A stretch of DNA of 64,000 bases from a virus: positions 1-64,000 of IMG/VR virus record IMGVR_UViG_3300050821_006280; one strand, 5' to 3'. The translations under genes were made by a program, and so were the position numbers. This document shows positions 3,203 through 35,353 of this stretch, piece after piece. A model generated the notes under the pieces. It was not told the origin of the DNA. It saw nothing but the letters and a program-made list of their open reading frames with translations, and ran no database searches. The first letter of the stretch is position 1, and each line of letters begins with the position of its first letter.

Positions 3203-3664
3203 CTAGAAATCGATGTAGATGAAGTGTTCAAGCGTCTTGTCGACCGTCTTCACTTCCATTGGGAAAGTCGAATACACCAACATCACGTTGCTGGCGTCGA
3301 ACACCCCTAACTCAAAGAACTGGGGCGGATTATTGTTCGACGTGAGATTCGCTTCGCCTGTGTCAACAAAGCAGTGAACCCTGGCGCGACGCGGCGCTAT
3401 GTATACAAGATCAGAAATGATCACGAAGTTCTTCGTGAAGATAAAGCTATAGTCACCGCCGGTATAGATTCCTGTTCCGGCAGTCAGCGCCGTCAGTGTC
3501 GGATCAGGGCTATTTGGCTGGTGGCCATTTACTGTATTTGTCCAACCACCGCAGCCGATGATGAAATGGTGTGGCAGAGTAATAGAGGCTCCGCCGTTAC
3601 CATAGAACTGAGCCAGCTCGGACCGCCAGCCATTGCTCACGACTGCGTTTACGATATTGGACAT
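3203..3664 (-). CDS. Baseplate/tail-fibre attachment protein
   Basis: FFELGVFD...MLVYSTFP..VKT motif typical of tail-collar/fibre N-terminal anchor domains; position in baseplate block. Confidence 0.6.
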   Translation of the reverse strand: MSNIVNAVVSNGWRSELAQFYGNGGASITLPHHFIIGCGGWTNTVNGHQPNSPDPTLTALTAGTGIYTGGDYSFIFTKNFVIISDLVYIAPRRARVHCFVDTGEANLTSNNNPPQFFELGVFDASNVMLVYSTFPMEVKTVDKTLEHFIYIDF

Positions 3665-3677
3665 CAGCTAGATCCTT

Positions 3678-6600
3678 TCACGGCACAACGCGAACAACGA
3701 TATCATCCAAGAACCATCCTTCGTATGTCGGATCAACGACTACGCTCGTAACGGTGTCGAAGTTCCACCTTACTCTGAATTGTCCAGCACCAACAACAGC
3801 TGTCGTTATATTGAGAACGATATATGCCCATTGGGCAGGAGTCGAATAACCGCTCCCAGCTCGCACTGACAGGCCAGTGGCGTCCAGGTTCCCCACTTGG
3901 TTTTTGTTGAAGTGCTGTAGAACGACGCCGACCGAGTTGACAATATCAACTGATGCCAAGTAGTTAGTCATGCCGGATTCGGCAAAGAAGTAGTGCCAAA
4001 ACTCAGCTGTCACTGTGGTCGCTGCGCTAACTGGTCCGATCAAGGGCGAAGACAAAGACCCCGCATTCGGCCTGGCGCCAAGATCAATTCGATTCTGGAA
4101 CGGAGTGTTCGGGTCGGTGATTCCATATGCAAACAATGCCGATCCAGAAGGCTTCAATCCAGCGGCCAAGAAATAGCTCTCGCCGGATGGTCTGGTCTGG
4201 CTTACATGCCAAAGGCCCGTCCCCAGCCAACTATTCGCCAGTGGCGACGTTCCATCGACGTGCTCCTCCAAGATGAACGGAGTCACCTGGTTCGAGGTCG
4301 ATGTCGCCACCATCTGATCAAACCCGTTACCCGTTCCACCTGTAGTGGTTCCTGGAGTCGCTAACGCATCCGCTGTCCATTCTTCTGCATCATCGTAAAG
4401 CGGCGCGAAAGACACGGGATCCAGGTTGTCTTCTTTGATCGAGCTGGATGCCATAAATGCTGGAAACGTCGCGATACCTGGCCCCGGATCGTAGACGAAT
4501 TGTGCGAAGCGAATATGGACCGGCACCAGCGGCTTGAGTCGGTTCGTCAGTCTGGTTCCAGGATCATCAGCCAAGGCCGCTGGATCGGCCAGGATGGCAT
4601 CTGGGGTCATGAGCACGCGGATAATGCTCGCCCGGCACCAATCGCACTCAGGGATGATATTGGGTACGTAGCTGATGTAGATCGATGTCCCCTGGACAGG
4701 AATCACCGCAGTTACCAGCTCGATGTTCAGACGGGTCCCATCCCAGGCCATCGACTCGATCCATGCCGAGGTCCCGTCGCTAAATGTCACTTCCCAGTTT
4801 CCCTGCTGGACCGGCGCAAGCAGCGGCTCATCGCCAGCGTAGGGACCCGACAGATTAGTCATCACCCTGACGCGATGACCAGTGAACCCCGTGTATTGCG
4901 GGCCGAAATTCTGTACTGCGGGAGTACCAGAGATTATCGTCGGAATTGTCGCCGCTAACGGTACGGCTCTCCACGTAACCGTACCAGCTCCAGCAACAGG
5001 AGTATTCGGAGCGAGCACCTCGAACGAATACTGGGTATTGCTTAGGAGCTGGAAATTCTCTACCTTGAACGAGTTCGCCGCCACATCAACGAATACTGCC
5101 TGAGGGAATGCGAGCGAGCGATTCATCTGCCCCGCATTCGGGGTGACTACGACGCTGTTCCTAAAATCCGTCCCCTCAGTCCGAATGAAGGTAACGGAGT
5201 TAACCGTCACATTCTGGATCAAGTCTGGGAACGTTGGACTGAAATCAAACAGATCAGTCGTAACGAAATCTGCTGGAATCTCATCCATTACAGCTCGTCG
5301 CGGATCAATATCAGTGTAGTACCCGGTGAATGACACCGCCTGCTCAAGTTTTAGTGGACTGACAGCACCAATAGTCGCCAAGACGATCGCTGTTTCAGCA
5401 ATTGTCGACGATACTGTTGCCGTGAAGACTCCGCTCCCATTTGTTATTCCACTCGTGGCAGAAAATGTTAGACCCAGATCTTGCGTCGATAGCGATACAG
5501 GCTGGCCGACAATAGGATTATTAGTGTTATCAAGAACAGTTACCGTAAGCGTTATGGTTGCAACGCCATCAGCCAATGCCGATGGAGGCGAAAAAGTAAA
5601 TGTCGAATGCCCGCTCCTCGATGGCAACGTGAGCGACGATCTGTTTCTCGGAATGACGATATTAAAGACATTGATTACCGGCAGAAGGGGCACCCAGTAC
5701 GAGGCGATCCGATAAAGTCCGAAGGAGCGTACGAAGAATCCCGCAATCGCCCCCATGTACTTGTAGCCATCCGCGGAGCCCTTGATATCCCAGAGCTGGA
5801 ACGAATGGTTGACAAACGAACGTTGAAAAGGAATCGGATCGTGACGATCTATCTCGACAGCGAAATCGGACCCCAAGATTGCCAGAATGTGCTGTGAATT
5901 AACTGTTCCGTCTTCTGGGTACGAAACAGATATCGAGAGATTGTCAGCAATCCCCGCATCCTTCGTGTACAGCACAATCGTACCCGTCGAGAAGTTGACC
6001 GTGCTCCCATTCCCTAGATCACCAGTCAACTGACCCGTCGGCGTGAATACACCGACCCGAGGAGTAGCCCCCTCGGTCCACCGAACGGTTGTCGGTTTCT
6101 CAGCAAGATCTGGTGCTGAGAGAGTGAAGATGTATGGAGGAGCAGTCACTCCATCAGCGACGTGCCCTGCCGCATATTGTCCGGCATTTGGTGTCTCAAC
6201 GATCGGGATCCGGGTGTACGTCAAAGTGATTGAAAGATTGTCTGCTGTCTTGAAGTCTTTGGTATAGACAGTGATCAATCCGGTCAGAAAGTTGACCGAG
6301 CTGCCGAGCCCAAGATCCCCGTTTGGTTGGCCCTTGTTGTTGAGACTACCTGCTTTAGCAGCTCCCGATTCCCTCCACGTTATCTGAATCGCATTGGCAG
6401 CAATGGGCGGGAAGGCAACGGTAAAAATATATGGCGGGGCTGTTGTTCCATCGTTGACATGTCCAGCCTGATACTGACCAACGATTGGATTTTCGTTGAA
6501 AACAAGCGCGCCAGAGACCATGGGAACCGTCTCTTGAGCAGCCTGAGAGATATTGCTGACAATGATATTCTTTGCGGTCGCCATCCCTGTGAATGGATCA

Positions 6601-30561: not shown

Positions 30562-32037
30562 TTACAGGCCGCTAACCGTCAGCTGCCCGTAGTACTCGGT
30601 ACGGAGCACCTTCTTGCCGTAACGAGTACGCAGACCCTTGCGGAACGAGAAGTCCGCCGGATCGAGGAAGGTTGGCGTGACCTGGAGCGGGATGTATGGC
30701 GCCCACACGTAGCCAGCGTCGAGGAAGCTTGCTCCCTTGAGGCCGATCAGCATCGCGTTCGTGGTGAAGAACGGATCCTCGTACACCACCCACTTGTTCA
30801 TGAGGGTGCCGACCTTATAGATGCCGAACTGGCCATGCTGGGTCAGCGGACGCGGCAGATCAGCCGGACCGTACGGCGAGGCTCCGCCCGACACCCATAG
30901 CGGACGGAAGTCGCCATGCGTCGTAAGCTGAGCCAGACGCGCGCTGATCTCTGGCGAGGTGACGATGAAGTTCGCCGGAGCGCGGAGCGTCTTCTTGTGG
31001 ATCAGGTTCGAGATCGTGCTGATCTTGGTGATCATTGCACGCAGATGGTCGATCTCGGGGATGCCAGCAGGCGGCGTCAGCGAGAACGTATCCGTGGTTC
31101 CACCCGAATTGACATAGAGATCATTGATGATCTCGCGGTCGATTTCGAGCGCGATCTCCTGGGCAATGCCCGATACCAGCTCGGTCTCAGCGTCCAGACC
31201 GTGGAAGGCACGGAGGTCTTCTGCTGCTTCCGAAGACCACAGAGCCTTGAGGCGACGCGGAACTGCCTCGATCGGGCTCTTGCTGATATCCAGGTTGACC
31301 TGGGGGATCTTGGTGTTCAGCTCACCATCATAGTAGTACGTGGCGATGATCTGGTTGTTCAACGCCGGAGCGGCCGTGAACTTGAACGCCGACAGCGCGC
31401 CGTTGCCGTAGTTCAGGGCACCACCAGTCACGGCACCAGTAAAGCCACCTGCACCGTTGTCAGTCGCAGACTGAATGATGTTGCCCGACGAATCGACTTC
31501 CTGGATGATCGTCGAGTAACCGCGCGATACGTCCAGAGGACGCAGCGGGGTCCACGCCAGAACTGCTGCGAGAGCAGCACCAGCGCCACCGAAATTGGTA
31601 CCATCACCGATCGCGAGCACTTCGCCGGCAACCTTCTCCGACGAATAGTCACGATCGAAGTCGCGCGGGAAGATGTTGCCAGCCTGCGTCTTCCCCTTGT
31701 TCGATCCATACTTGTAATCGAAGAAGAAGACCGCTCCAACGGGGGCCGTCATCGGCTGAACCGAGACGATCTCGTTGGCAATCAGGTTCGGGAACACCCG
31801 GCGCAGAACCGGGAAGATGAACTTGGTGAAGGAGCCGACGTTGATCGTCTTCGTCTCCTCTTCCAGGCTTTGGAGCCACTGGCTCTCATTCTCCATGAGC
31901 ATGGCTGTGACACCACGCGTATATGGATCCTTGATTCCTTCCAGAAGCTCATGCCACTTACCCACGAGCGACTGGACGAAACCCTTATCCGCAATACTGC
32001 GGCGGGCCTCGGTCAGCTGGATGTCTCTCGCTTCCAT
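30562..32037 (-). CDS. Major capsid protein (T4 gp23 family)
   Basis: VLRRVFPNLIANEIVSVQPM, RRLKALWSSEAAEDLRAFHGLDAE, IALEIDREI, APYIPL, RTRYG; start at ATG 32037 with RBS GGAGG. Confidence 0.97.
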   Translation of the reverse strand: MEARDIQLTEARRSIADKGFVQSLVGKWHELLEGIKDPYTRGVTAMLMENESQWLQSLEEETKTINVGSFTKFIFPVLRRVFPNLIANEIVSVQPMTAPVGAVFFFDYKYGSNKGKTQAGNIFPRDFDRDYSSEKVAGEVLAIGDGTNFGGAGAALAAVLAWTPLRPLDVSRGYSTIIQEVDSSGNIIQSATDNGAGGFTGAVTGGALNYGNGALSAFKFTAAPALNNQIIATYYYDGELNTKIPQVNLDISKSPIEAVPRRLKALWSSEAAEDLRAFHGLDAETELVSGIAQEIALEIDREIINDLYVNSGGTTDTFSLTPPAGIPEIDHLRAMITKISTISNLIHKKTLRAPANFIVTSPEISARLAQLTTHGDFRPLWVSGGASPYGPADLPRPLTQHGQFGIYKVGTLMNKWVVYEDPFFTTNAMLIGLKGASFLDAGYVWAPYIPLQVTPTFLDPADFSFRKGLRTRYGKKVLRTEYYGQLTVSGL

Positions 32038-32056
32038 TGAAATTTCCTCCGTGTTC

Positions 32057-33721
32057 CTAGTTTGTGATCCCCGAGAGAGCACGGAGCTGCTCTAGCGAGA
32101 GCCCGAGCCCGTGGTAATCTTGGGAGTTGCCGTTCTTCGCAGAACCGTTCTGGTTTCCGCGTTCCTCGTGTTCGAGGACTGCTTCACGCGTCTGAGCCGA
32201 TCCGGCTAGCTTGCGCACGCGTTCACGTGCTTCTTCGATCGTCACCGGATCGCGACGCGGCTCTCTGAACTTCGAGAGAAGCGTGTCAACATCCTCTTTC
32301 GAGCCGATGTTGGCGTTTTCCAGGAGAACGCGGACTTCGCCAGCGCGAGGGTGATTCGCCAAGCGCTGCTCGACGTAGGTCTGGAGGCTGAGCTGCTTCG
32401 TTGCCTCCAAAGCCTTTTCTGTCGCGAGGCGGAGTTTCTTGTTCTCCTCCTCCAGCCGCATGATCTCGGAATCACGCTCCTCCTTCTGCGAAGCGGTCTT
32501 CTGGATTTCCTCAACGATCGCTTCAACCTTGGCGTTGATCGCCTCGACCGACTCGTAGACCTTCACGTCACCGACGAGCTTGCGAATCAGCTCTGCCTGT
32601 GGAATCCCATGGAGCAGACCTTCGAGATGGAAGCGGTAGCCGGCTTCCTTGGCAATAGCGGCGAGCTTTTCGTTCTCCTCTGCCAGCTTCACCATCTTCA
32701 GCTCTTGCTCGGCAAGCTTCGACTGAAGGGCCTCGATCTGCTGTTCTTTGGTCTTCACCACCGACTCGACATCCGATGGGATCACGAACGGCCGGAGCAT
32801 CTCCTTGACCTGCTCCAACGCTGCCTTGGCACCTGCAACAGCTGGATCGCTGAGAAGCTTGTTGCGCTCCTCTTGGGCAATCTGCTCGCGTGCATCGGCA
32901 AGAGCCTGCTGGAGTTGCTCAGCAAAGGTTCCACGAAGATCGCTTGCAGCTTCCTGACGTGCTGCTGTGATCTTTTTCGCCCAGATATCCGCGCCCTTCT
33001 TCTCGTACTCACGCTCCGCGTCGTGCATGAACGACTCGTACAGCGCGGGATTCTCCTTGCGGAGCTTCTCCAGGGTCAGATCCTTGCTCATCACTGCCTC
33101 CACCTGGACCGTTTCCGGCCGCGGCTTAGTCGTCGTCTTGGTGATCGTCACGGGTGCTGACGGCTTTGCTTCCACCACGTTTGCAGGCTCAGACTTCTTC
33201 GCTTCCGCGTGAATCGTCGGATACGAAGTGACATTGGCCGGCTCAGCCACGAAATCGAAAGTCATGAGCCGGTAGTCTTCCTGCACTACATCCTCACCCT
33301 TCATGTTCGGGCGAGTTGTTCCAAAACCACGCGAAGACACACCGACCTGTCCACTCGCGTCAAGGATCGCTTTCAGGTTTCGACCTTCAGCGGTATCGAG
33401 GATCTCTGCCTCGCCCACCACCACGCCGTTCTCCATATGGAGACCAGTAATGATGTGCGAGACACGCTTGAGCTGGGTACGTCCGTCCATCGGGTGATCC
33501 AGCTCGCCATAAACTTTGCGTTCTTGGATCGACTTCGAGAGACGAGAGAGTTCACGCTCCCAGAGCTTCAGTGGGTAGACACGCTTGTTCTCAGTAGCGA
33601 GATCCGCCCGCGCGAATTCACCTCGGGCGACGATCCTTGGACGACCGCCTCCCTTGCTACTGTTGTCCTCAAGGAGCTGCACCTTGAAGTTCAGCGTGTC
33701 GACGAGAAGTTTCTTTTCCAT
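32057..33721 (-). CDS. Prohead protease (gp21 family) fused to coiled-coil scaffold (gp22-like)
   Basis: NKRVYP, GELDHP, VSHII, GVSSRGFG, DFVAEPA; C-terminal coiled coil ending LRALSGI; ATG 33721 overlaps the upstream TGA. Confidence 0.92.
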   Translation of the reverse strand: MEKKLLVDTLNFKVQLLEDNSSKGGGRPRIVARGEFARADLATENKRVYPLKLWERELSRLSKSIQERKVYGELDHPMDGRTQLKRVSHIITGLHMENGVVVGEAEILDTAEGRNLKAILDASGQVGVSSRGFGTTRPNMKGEDVVQEDYRLMTFDFVAEPANVTSYPTIHAEAKKSEPANVVEAKPSAPVTITKTTTKPRPETVQVEAVMSKDLTLEKLRKENPALYESFMHDAEREYEKKGADIWAKKITAARQEAASDLRGTFAEQLQQALADAREQIAQEERNKLLSDPAVAGAKAALEQVKEMLRPFVIPSDVESVVKTKEQQIEALQSKLAEQELKMVKLAEENEKLAAIAKEAGYRFHLEGLLHGIPQAELIRKLVGDVKVYESVEAINAKVEAIVEEIQKTASQKEERDSEIMRLEEENKKLRLATEKALEATKQLSLQTYVEQRLANHPRAGEVRVLLENANIGSKEDVDTLLSKFREPRRDPVTIEEARERVRKLAGSAQTREAVLEHEERGNQNGSAKNGNSQDYHGLGLSLEQLRALSGITN

Positions 33722-33939
33722 CAGTCCTTCCGCCACCTGAATCGCCCACGCATCTGAAGTCTCGCGATTGGCGATTTGCTCTGATTCGTTACCCGACGCT
33801 TTACTTGTCCAACGTCAGGCTTCTCGTACCCGATCAACTCCTGGCGACCGGAGGAGTACTGAGTTCTCCTCCCGCGCTGCCATTCGTTAGTAGGCTCCTT
33901 CTTCCTCGCCTTTCCGAAAGGGCGCTTTGTGGCCCCCCA
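33721..33939 (-). CDS. Start-less basic reading frame, candidate +1 frameshift extension of the upstream gene
   Basis: 72 open codons filling the intergenic gap, ending in a TGATG overlap with the protease; CCC-TTT-CGG at 33914-33922. Confidence 0.55.
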   Translation of the reverse strand, partial: WGATKRPFGKARKKEPTNEWQRGRRTQYSSGRQELIGYEKPDVGQVKRRVTNQSKSPIARLQMRGRFRWRKD

Positions 33940-35353
33940 TCATCGAATCGCGCTTGGACTTGAGGGCATGCATCTTCGCCATCATGTCCTGACGATCACC
34001 ATCGGTATCACCCTCTGGTGATGTGTCATCGTCGCCATCGTGATCGGGATCGCGGTCATCCATCCCGTCATCGTCGCCACCGGCAGCCATTCCATCCTCG
34101 CCGCCATCCTCACCGTCGCCTTCGGCTCCATCGCCCTCGGCATGGTGATGGTGATGAACATCGGAATGGTGATGGATATGGACGTGCGCTCCACCCTCTT
34201 CTCCATCCTGACCATCTTCATCGCCCTGGCCGTCGTCGGCCATGCGCGGATCTTCTTCGTCCTCGTCGTCTGTCGCTGCGTGACCTAGGGCGCCACCTGC
34301 GGCAGCTCCGACTGGACCACCAGCCATTGCTCCGAGCCCAGCGCCGACAGCTGTTCCGAGTGCGCCTTCTTCCTGCTCGCCCTCGTCAAGAGCGGAGTCG
34401 TACGCCTCAAGCGCATCCATGAGCTTGTCGACCATTGCCGAGAAGACCTTCTCCGCCTGCTCCTTGAATGCCGGTGACGGAATGTCATATGGCTTCTCTG
34501 GATCATGGTCCTTGGCCGACTCTTCCTCGGTCTCGTCCATGTCCTCGACGTGCTCATACTCGTCGGCAGCCGAATTCTTGATGGCAGCGTTCTCGTCACC
34601 GTCATCGCCGACATGAGTCATCTCGGTTTCGACGATATCGATCGCCTCAGCGGCAGCCCGCGAAAGCTCCTCCATCTCCGAAACGAGCTTCTCGACGTGA
34701 TAAACGTCAGCCATCTCCGTAAGGCGATCGGCGAGGAGAGCCGCGTCTTCACTGACAAGACGGAAACCGCGCATCAGGTTGTCTACGGCTTCGTCGATCT
34801 GGACTCCGCGAAGCAGCCCGGTGACCTCTTCGATCAGCGTCGCAGCCTTACCCAGAGTACCTACGCTCTCCATCCGAGAGCTGGTCTTGCTCATGCCACC
34901 AATCTTCTTGGCCGGCTTGAGACCCTGAGCAACCGCAGGTGCTTGTCCCTTTCCCTTACCCTTGGGATGGACATTCTTCTTGGCGAGCATGTAGCCCTTG
35001 TTCTCGCCCTTGATCGAAGCTTCCTTCCCTCCAGGAACCTTGTGATAGCTGCCCTTGGACTTGTGAGCGCCCTTCGAGCCACCATCCTCGATCGGATCCA
35101 TGACTGCCGAATCGTCGTCGTCAGGACCCATCGCCGGCTTCGGCTGCTTTGCCGTCTTGTGGTTCGCAGACTTGTCTCCGCCGCTGGTATCCAGACCAGG
35201 AAGCGTCGATGGTTCGGGTGATGGGATGTCTCTCGGCTTGGCCGGATCATCCACTTCGGACAGCTGCTTGCCCTCATTCAAAGGCGGAAGCAATCCGATC
35301 TTGCGGAAGTCTTCTTCGACGGTGGTGAGAATTCTTGGATATCTGTGGATCAT
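33887..35353 (-). CDS. Acidic prohead core-like protein with His-rich tract and glycine zipper
   Basis: Between portal and protease (T4 gp67/68 position); D/E-rich; HVHIHHHSDVHHHHH. Confidence 0.7.
   Translation of the reverse strand: MIHRYPRILTTVEEDFRKIGLLPPLNEGKQLSEVDDPAKPRDIPSPEPSTLPGLDTSGGDKSANHKTAKQPKPAMGPDDDDSAVMDPIEDGGSKGAHKSKGSYHKVPGGKEASIKGENKGYMLAKKNVHPKGKGKGQAPAVAQGLKPAKKIGGMSKTSSRMESVGTLGKAATLIEEVTGLLRGVQIDEAVDNLMRGFRLVSEDAALLADRLTEMADVYHVEKLVSEMEELSRAAAEAIDIVETEMTHVGDDGDENAAIKNSAADEYEHVEDMDETEEESAKDHDPEKPYDIPSPAFKEQAEKVFSAMVDKLMDALEAYDSALDEGEQEEGALGTAVGAGLGAMAGGPVGAAAGGALGHAATDDEDEEDPRMADDGQGDEDGQDGEEGGAHVHIHHHSDVHHHHHAEGDGAEGDGEDGGEDGMAAGGDDDGMDDRDPDHDGDDDTSPEGDTDGDRQDMMAKMHALKSKRDSMMGGHKAPFRKGEEEGAY

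Follow-up and report, generated by a model that had tools for sequence, protein, structure and literature searches.

Organization of the junction between the acidic head-core gene and the prohead protease

The stretch of DNA analysed here (the window: 64,000 nucleotides, positions 1 to 64,000 of IMG/VR virus record IMGVR_UViG_3300050821_006280) is part of a 109.5-kb virus contig with a completeness estimate of 68%, and it carries a gene for an acidic head-core protein followed, across an apparent gap, by the gene for a prohead protease. This report concerns a basic peptide, referred to here as the tail, which is encoded in the +1 frame across that gap and which is probably joined to the acidic protein by programmed ribosomal frameshifting. 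Every gene around the junction lies on the minus strand, in the order portal, a gene of 322 amino acids (aa), acidic gene, gap, protease and major capsid. The features on which the argument depends are listed below, where L023 and L026 are two related loci that also carry the tail in the +1 frame, and A3 and A8 are the tail alignments described in the next section.

33887..35353, minus strand: acidic head-core gene, zero frame, short form of 488 aa, pI 4.5, ending ...APFRKGEEEGAY (37 protein relatives; conserved N- and C-terminal motifs)
33887..33939, minus strand: overlap region for the change into the +1 frame, 17 codons, limited by the tail-frame TGA 33942-33940 and the zero-frame TAA 33889-33887
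33933..33938, minus strand: G6 run (GGG_GGC), an alternative slip site; present here, not conserved in L023 or L026
33916..33922, minus strand: candidate slip site CCC_TTT_C, then GG (CCC_UUU_CGG), with Phe479 as the last shared residue
33724..33915, minus strand: tail-specific +1-frame coding sequence, 64 residues, pI 11.6, 19 Lys plus Arg
33850..33872, minus strand: hairpin with a 7-bp GGAGGAG/CTCCTCC stem and a 9-nt loop, starting 44 nt after TTT_C
33844..33870, minus strand: invariant tail core RRTQYSSGR (invariant columns in alignments A3 and A8)
Acidic gene to protease, minus strand: apparent gap, 165 nt
33719..33723, minus strand: TGATG, the tail stop overlapping the protease start
32057..33721, minus strand: prohead protease (S77, gp21-like) fused to a coiled-coil, scaffold-like C-terminal part, 554 aa (Pfam PF03420, 5.6e-14; PHROG 207, 2.9e-42)

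A first-pass annotation of this DNA had proposed that a stop-free +1 frame of 72 codons bridges the acidic gene and the protease, and its coordinates were confirmed as 33939-33721 on the minus strand, with a TGA at 33942-33940 before it and a TGA at 33723-33721 at its end. Its claim that the frame has no usable upstream start also held, given that no ATG, GTG, TTG, CTG or ATH codon occurs in the tail frame of the window between the upstream stop and the conserved core; start-type codons occur in this frame only twice, as a TTG within the core (coding for the L of ELIGY) and as an ATG that precedes the stop by 10 codons. The lack of a start codon and the presence of the upstream stop together leave the final 17 codons of the acidic gene as the only place of entry into the frame. 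This stop-bounded segment includes both of the motifs that had been picked out there, namely the G6 run of GGG-GGC at 33938-33933 and CCC_TTT_CGG at 33922-33914. At its other end the tail frame closes in the predicted TGATG overlap, in which the TGA shares its A with the protease ATG 33721-33719. This type of overlap is kept in nearly all relatives, as TAATG or as a near-abutting tail stop and protease start, and the alignment of relatives to the protease begins only at residue 3 counted from the same ATG. No promoter- or terminator-like sites were found in the gap, no Rfam matches of note were obtained, and no phage tRNAs were found within the 64-kb window.

The tail frame is a conserved coding sequence

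At the observed GC content of 57%, an open frame of 72 codons has a chance of about 1 in 10, so that its length alone is no proof of coding. The frame is more than chance because its peptide is conserved in more than 60 related contigs and because the tail frame is under purifying selection. More than 60 distinct contigs of environmental T4-type phages carry the same basic peptide, with the core RRTxYSSGR and a C-terminal FRW, and in each case it lies between the acidic gene and the protease; the relatives found via the protease all bear it at this position, and the use of small tail proteins as queries on viral contigs led to 80 further loci. The tail of the window was aligned to the tails of 14 and then of 54 relatives (alignments A3 and A8). 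Residues E, R, R, Y, S, G, R, K and R are invariant in the 15-sequence alignment, and the columns R, R, Y, S, G and R are invariant in both A3 and A8, which fits an R-R-x-x-Y-x-S/T-G-R core combined with a basic C-terminal F/W motif. The ratio of nonsynonymous to synonymous substitution rates (dN/dS) in the tail frame is 0.09-0.28 among those pairs of relatives whose synonymous sites are unsaturated, and the tails of the window and L023 differ at a nonsynonymous proportion (pN) of 0.35 and a synonymous proportion (pS) of 0.83.

A tail profile searched against 1.84 billion representative proteins gave 22 matches, almost all of them 55-93 aa long and all from this family only, and a 'near' search with the window tail met no called open reading frame (ORF). 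A fusion of the acidic protein and the tail in one frame occurs in none of the 1.84 billion representatives, nor was one found in a search for longer proteins, and this want of in-frame fusions fits a need for two forms of the protein. By these comparative criteria, the +1 frame is a real, conserved coding sequence. Searches with blastn and tblastn against 50,697 phage records returned no match for the locus or the tail, and the protease matched these records only through its gp21 domain at below 41% identity; the phage is therefore taken to be without a cultured relative. Neither Pfam nor PHROGs held a match for the acidic protein or the tail, a profile search of the PDB returned no relatives, and AlphaFold2 applied to the tail (55-sequence alignment) gave a model of low confidence that is mostly coil (pLDDT 68, pTM 0.23).

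Most relatives place the tail in the -1 frame

The conservation that the first-pass annotation had proposed to look for was found for the tail peptide, and for its +1 frame in L023 and L026, but most relatives carry the tail in the -1 frame. A census of 63 distinct junctions, sorted by the relation of the tail to the acidic gene and by the presence of a start codon, gave the following counts.

-1, no start codon: 40 of 63 junctions
-1, some ATG, GTG or TTG within 130 nt: 13 of 63 junctions
Separate in-frame ORF with its own ATG: 3 of 63 junctions
+1, with a start: 4 of 63 junctions
+1, no start (window, L023, L026): 3 of 63 junctions

An in-register X_XXY_YYZ heptamer lies inside the short overlap in 41 of the 53 junctions of -1 relation (G_GGA_AAC in 21, C_CCT_TTC in 10, G_GGA_AAA in 5, and others), against a background of 13 such heptamers per 16,006 upstream codons. 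In three of these loci (L014, L018 and L020) just 2 codons separate the opening of the tail frame from the heptamer, and in the same three as well as in L011 and L016 a hairpin of the form GGGCUC(C)...(G)GAGCCC begins 8 nt past the heptamer. The acidic protein of the -1 relatives ends in ...GPFGK. The excess of heptamers, taken together with the startless -1 junctions, indicates that recoding is the normal route by which this family joins the acidic protein to the tail, and we found no paper describing such a -1 frameshift family of an acidic head-core gene and a basic tail in uncultured T4-type phages.

Some -1 lineages lack a canonical heptamer (L002, positions 3582-3625; L004, positions 3746-3790; also L029 and L039). 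In these four the acidic gene ends in CGC_CCT_ATC or CGC_CCT_ACC plus a stop, with a hairpin of 7-9 bp directly 3' of it. The hairpins of L002 and L004 differ by compensatory changes, and an ATG in the hairpin loop of L004 corresponds to ACG in L002, so that either tRNA-Pro alone slips on C_CCU in this type or L004 has gained a start of its own.

A shared UUU_C in the +1 sub-group

The window, L023 and L026, which come from three different metagenomes and whose tails are 38-58% identical, each carry a startless tail in the +1 frame. No start codon occurs in at least 50 codons before the core in L023 and L026, or in the 23 stop-bounded codons before the core in the window. In all three, an in-frame TTT followed by C lies 24-33 nt before the zero-frame stop, in the contexts CCC_TTT_CGG (window), CAG_TTT_CAG (L023) and AAG_TTT_CGG (L026), and this TTT_C is the sole candidate slip motif common to the +1 sequences for which DNA is available. 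The Phe codon is TTT in 3 of 3 of these DNA sequences, although TTC is the commoner codon in the phage genes (459 against 270). CCC is the rarest Pro codon in the phage genes, and CCC_TTT_C occurs in frame on the coding strand of the window once only.

The acidic protein itself provides a further line of evidence and shows that the subclade extends beyond these three sequences. An EEDFRxIGLL motif at its N-terminus and a PFR motif at its C-terminus are conserved. A search with it yielded 37 relatives, of which 28 (41-78% identity) end in ...PFR, ...PFRG(D/E)n..Y, ...FQ.., ...FP.. or ...FH.., several of them exactly at PFR. Phe479 is invariant across 19 aligned relatives, and the residue after the C-terminal Phe is R, Q, P or H in 28 of 28. 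C is the first base of every Gln, Pro and His codon and of four of the six Arg codons. Further +1 members were sought by scanning viral contigs with the tail subgroup and with the acidic protein, and by scanning genome contigs, and these scans produced no extra +1 members.

Taken together, these comparisons back the core idea of the first-pass annotation, a hidden +1 frameshift at CCC_UUU_CGG that adds a basic tail, and we consider it probable that programmed +1 frameshifting at UUU_C adds a long form of 543 aa to the 488-aa short one, with a slip of tRNA-Phe from UUU to UUC as the most likely event. In the mechanism that we infer, which extends to the slippage itself, its exact site, the ratio of the two forms, the coupling to the protease and the role of the peptide, most ribosomes would read the acidic gene to its TAA and release the short form. 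In a minority, tRNA-Phe on the UUU at 33919-33917 would move one base forward in the P site onto UUC, after which the ribosome would read GGA and onward through 64 further codons, giving a product of 543 aa (residues 1-479 plus the tail). In the window lineage the basic tail would thus be made in no other way than fused to the C-terminus of the acidic head-core protein. The efficiency of the shift is probably low. Shifted ribosomes would end at the TGA, whose A is also the first base of the protease ATG, and may re-initiate there. The conservation of this stop/start overlap suggests that translation of the protease may be coupled to the shifted ribosomes; this coupling and the fixed ratio of two core proteins, both put forward in the first-pass annotation, are putative. 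T4 head biology suggests, by analogy, that the core protein would carry the fused basic peptide into the prohead and that the prohead protease may then release it by a cut at the Glu directly preceding the conserved core.

Several points weigh against this reading. Within the genes of the window TTT_C occurs in frame 56 times and TTT_CGG three times, and CGG, at 8.7 per 1000 in the phage genes, is not rare and is replaced by CAG in L023; the slip motif singled out in the first-pass annotation is therefore weak evidence by itself, and alone it cannot be strongly shifty. No stimulator was found at the +1 site. The GGAGGAG/CTCCTCC hairpin reported downstream is real, but its role as a stimulator did not hold up, as neither L023 nor L026 has the hairpin found at 33872-33850 and, with a z-score of -0.65, the window folds locally no better than shuffled sequences do; it is probably a by-product of the codons for RGRR..YSS. 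RNAalifold scored the three +1 sequences at -3.6 kcal/mol, and neither convincing covariation nor a conserved structure emerged; no consistently placed upstream Shine-Dalgarno-like element was seen in them. The +1 type is, moreover, known from three DNA sequences only, and the 28 relatives of the acidic protein inform on amino acids and not on codons. Finally, stand-alone tail genes with their own ATG or GTG exist in distant clades, which means that the peptide can work unfused.

Within the tail subgroup of the window, the two small called ORFs P0005 and P0008 start with a segment like the C-terminal helix of the acidic gene (..RFAEMKRSL.. and ..KRMTSL..), in frame with the tail, and in these phages the gene boundary or the shift site may lie further upstream.

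Alternative explanations for the junction

Among the explanations that keep a +1 shift, it could occur elsewhere in the 17 codons, either by a ribosome slipping on GGG_GGC, CCC_U or AAA_G or by RNA-polymerase slippage on the G6 run, all of which lie within the permitted segment. The rarity of CCC among the Pro codons here and the +1-prone behaviour of CCC_N in bacteria (PMC5009743) speak for such a site, but none of these motifs is common to L023 and L026, where TTT_C alone is shared, and G6 is short for transcriptional slippage and absent from the relatives; we rate this as rather improbable. Separate translation of the tail (about 55 residues), from a non-canonical start or by re-initiation after the stop of the acidic gene, would agree with the stand-alone tail ORFs of distant clades, which begin at ATG or GTG with a short leader ending in L-x-E, and an AAGGAG does lie 11 nt before an ATG at 33883-33881. 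That ATG, however, is in the zero frame and was rejected as a start: its frame ends after 22 codons, and the nearby ATG and GTG codons are out of the tail frame and are a by-product of conserved Glu-Trp codons (GAR TGG), with GTG at the same position in L023 and no such codon in L026. Since the tail frame of the window offers no ATG, GTG, TTG, CTG or ATH from the upstream stop to the core, and since 40 sister junctions are startless too and carry slippery heptamers instead, separate translation appears unlikely. Homologues with an independent start, which the first-pass annotation had named as evidence that would count against it, are thus present in distant clades but not in the window's own.

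An error of assembly or sequencing was also considered, because either of two homopolymers could remove the need for recoding by a one-base change: with one G fewer in G6 the tail would be in frame, and with one G fewer in the GGG at 33873-33871 it would start at the ATG at 33883. Here, P0024, a relative of the acidic protein with 78% identity encoded on an independent 9.4-kb contig, shows the same zero-frame ending past both runs (...PPFRKGGEAEGGAY), and P0025, P0040 and P0043 have homologous endings of the form ...FRG(D/E)n..SY. Because independent contigs share the zero-frame C-terminus, such an indel (insertion or deletion) is practically excluded, and in addition L023 and L026 show the +1 relation without G6 or GGG runs, and the databases hold no in-frame fusion of acidic protein and tail. 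The tail could alternatively be a decaying, unexpressed relic in the window lineage, as it has no start and no strong stimulator, is shorter than most and is without the middle KST..PKRRKK..D block. Yet the frame is intact in three lineages at 38-58% tail identity, every invariant residue is retained, pN remains well below pS between the window and L023 (0.35 against 0.83), and the tail stop still overlaps the protease ATG, all of which makes a relic very unlikely.

Other recoding events were tried on the window and rejected. A canonical -1 shift does not apply, since CCCTTTC is read here as CCC_TTT_C (offset 0) with the tail in the +1 frame, and the -1 frame ends at 33834 without the tail. 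A -2 shift on G_CCC_UUU permits no re-pairing, and a shift at a stop codon (of the RF2 or PSA tsh type) fails on the codons before the stops (TAC_TAA, GGT_TAA and TAC_TGA), which are unable to re-pair in +1. A stimulator of the lambda G/GT type would lie 5-9 nt downstream, and the sole hairpin starts 44 nt off and is not conserved.

Evolution of shift direction and the shared heptanucleotide

A quick maximum-likelihood tree of 61 proteases with a midpoint root placed the window, L023 and L026 as basal members of a fully supported clade of 15 rows, the remaining 12 of which are -1. The sister clade of 30 rows is -1 throughout, and stand-alone tails with their own starts fall mostly in a separate clade of 16 rows. 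Read in this way, the protease tree needs at least two changes of shift direction in the window's clade. Stand-alone tail genes were observed in L049, L055, L104, L063-L065, L064, L079, L083 and L102, each with its own ATG or GTG and a hydrophobic leader of 10-15 residues ending in L-x-E.

The heptanucleotide itself links the two directions, as CCCTTTC and the next six bases are identical in the window and in the -1 relative L016. The register of L016 is C_CCT_TTC and its shift goes -1, whereas the register of the window is CCC_TTT_C and its shift must go +1, and on CCCUUUC both tRNAs (Pro and Phe) could re-pair perfectly in either direction. CCCUUUC might therefore be a two-way tandem slip site, used backward as C_CCU_UUC in L011 and L016 and forward as CCC_UUU_C in the window. 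L023 and L026 lack the CCC, which leaves tandem +1 slippage a minority possibility, and a two-way site is in our view doubtful. If it were true, small indels flanking an unchanged slippery sequence could reverse the direction of the shift, from -1 to +1 or back, while function is kept.

Among bacteria and phages, programmed +1 frameshifting is a rare phenomenon that inspection of the sequence does not easily reveal. The +1 junction described here sits inside a large family that reaches the identical protein join through textbook -1 sites, some of them with this heptanucleotide in the other register, and it offers a natural homologous pair for comparing backward and forward ribosome slips and the survival of recoding sites through indels. 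For annotation, it implies that gene callers miss a conserved head peptide in every startless lineage. Should the peptide be cargo packaged on the core protein, the shift would be a means of setting the amount of a basic head protein relative to an acidic scaffold.

Neighbouring genes

The remaining genes around the junction have the following features.

38241-36412, minus strand: T4 gp20-like portal
Between the portal and the acidic 488-aa gene, minus strand: 322-aa gene
30562-32082, minus strand: gp23-like major capsid gene, after the protease

The protease domain occupies about the first 180 aa of the protease gene product and is followed by a coiled-coil region of about 370 aa, a fusion kept in all relatives (505-675 aa), and the coiled-coil part probably stands in for a separate scaffold gene of the gp22 type. 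The acidic protein has a His-rich stretch (34142-34186, minus strand; residues 390-404, with 11 His in 15 positions) within its Asp-, Glu- and Gly-rich C-terminal third, and this stretch may bind metal. For the major capsid gene, the true start probably lies 15 codons downstream of the listed GTG, as relatives start at the ATG of MEAR.. (at about 32037).

Comparison with known systems

The closest counterparts of the junction are the -1 members of its own family in uncultured T4-type phages, which share the homologous acidic gene, the basic tail (RRTAYSSGR...FRW), the location before the protease and the stop/ATG overlap. They differ in using C_CCT_TTC or G_GGA_AAC with the tail in -1 and a hairpin 8 nt downstream, whereas the window has CCC_TTT_C, a tail in +1 and no conserved structure.

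With regard to T4, the first-pass annotation had drawn a parallel to gp67 and gp68, and the link to these two is one of gene position only, between a gp20-like portal and a gp21-like protease, as neither the acidic protein nor the tail is similar in sequence to any T4 protein. A small basic cargo-like peptide is a further feature in common with the T4 core proteins and the internal proteins that bear capsid targeting sequences. In T4, gp21 cleaves after L/I-x-E, and short N-terminal leaders ending in this way target internal proteins to the prohead (PMC9026906); the leaders of 10-15 residues ending in L-x-E on the stand-alone tails resemble these capsid targeting sequences. An [LIVM]-x-E motif lies exactly 4-5 residues before the core in 29 of 63 tails, and most of the others have Glu there. 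Cleavage by the protease before the tail core is on this basis a speculative proposal, and the pattern fits a basic head peptide for which, by analogy with T4, there would be two ways into the prohead, a leader of its own or a ride on the acidic core protein, with release by cleavage afterwards. The window has T-N-E in place of L/I-x-E, which makes the case for cleavage weaker there, and T4 has no frameshift at this position.

For the slip site, UUU_Ynn is documented as a +1-prone site in bacteria (PMC5009743), and the UUU-pyrimidine +1 sites include the YopN-TyeA fusion of Yersinia as well as the PA-X of influenza A virus at UCC_UUU_CGU (PMC5009743). The window is like these systems in its zero-frame UUU plus pyrimidine, which would allow tRNA-Phe to re-pair on UUC, and in the fusion with a downstream ORF. 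The resemblance of CCC_UUU_CGG in the window to the PA-X cassette is close, while L023 differs in having CAG for CGG. In the present case, the shift is a prediction from sequence, and CGG is not rare in the phage. Among phages, A118 and A500 of Listeria use a -1 shift and PSA uses a +1 shift for a homologous C-terminal extension of the capsid protein (PMC5009743). PSA shifts on CCC beside a pseudoknot or stop and in a capsid protein, unlike the head-core, scaffold-like gene of the window with its shared site UUU_C, but the Listeria phages A118 and A500 on the one hand and PSA on the other provide a precedent for a switch of shift direction within a phage family.

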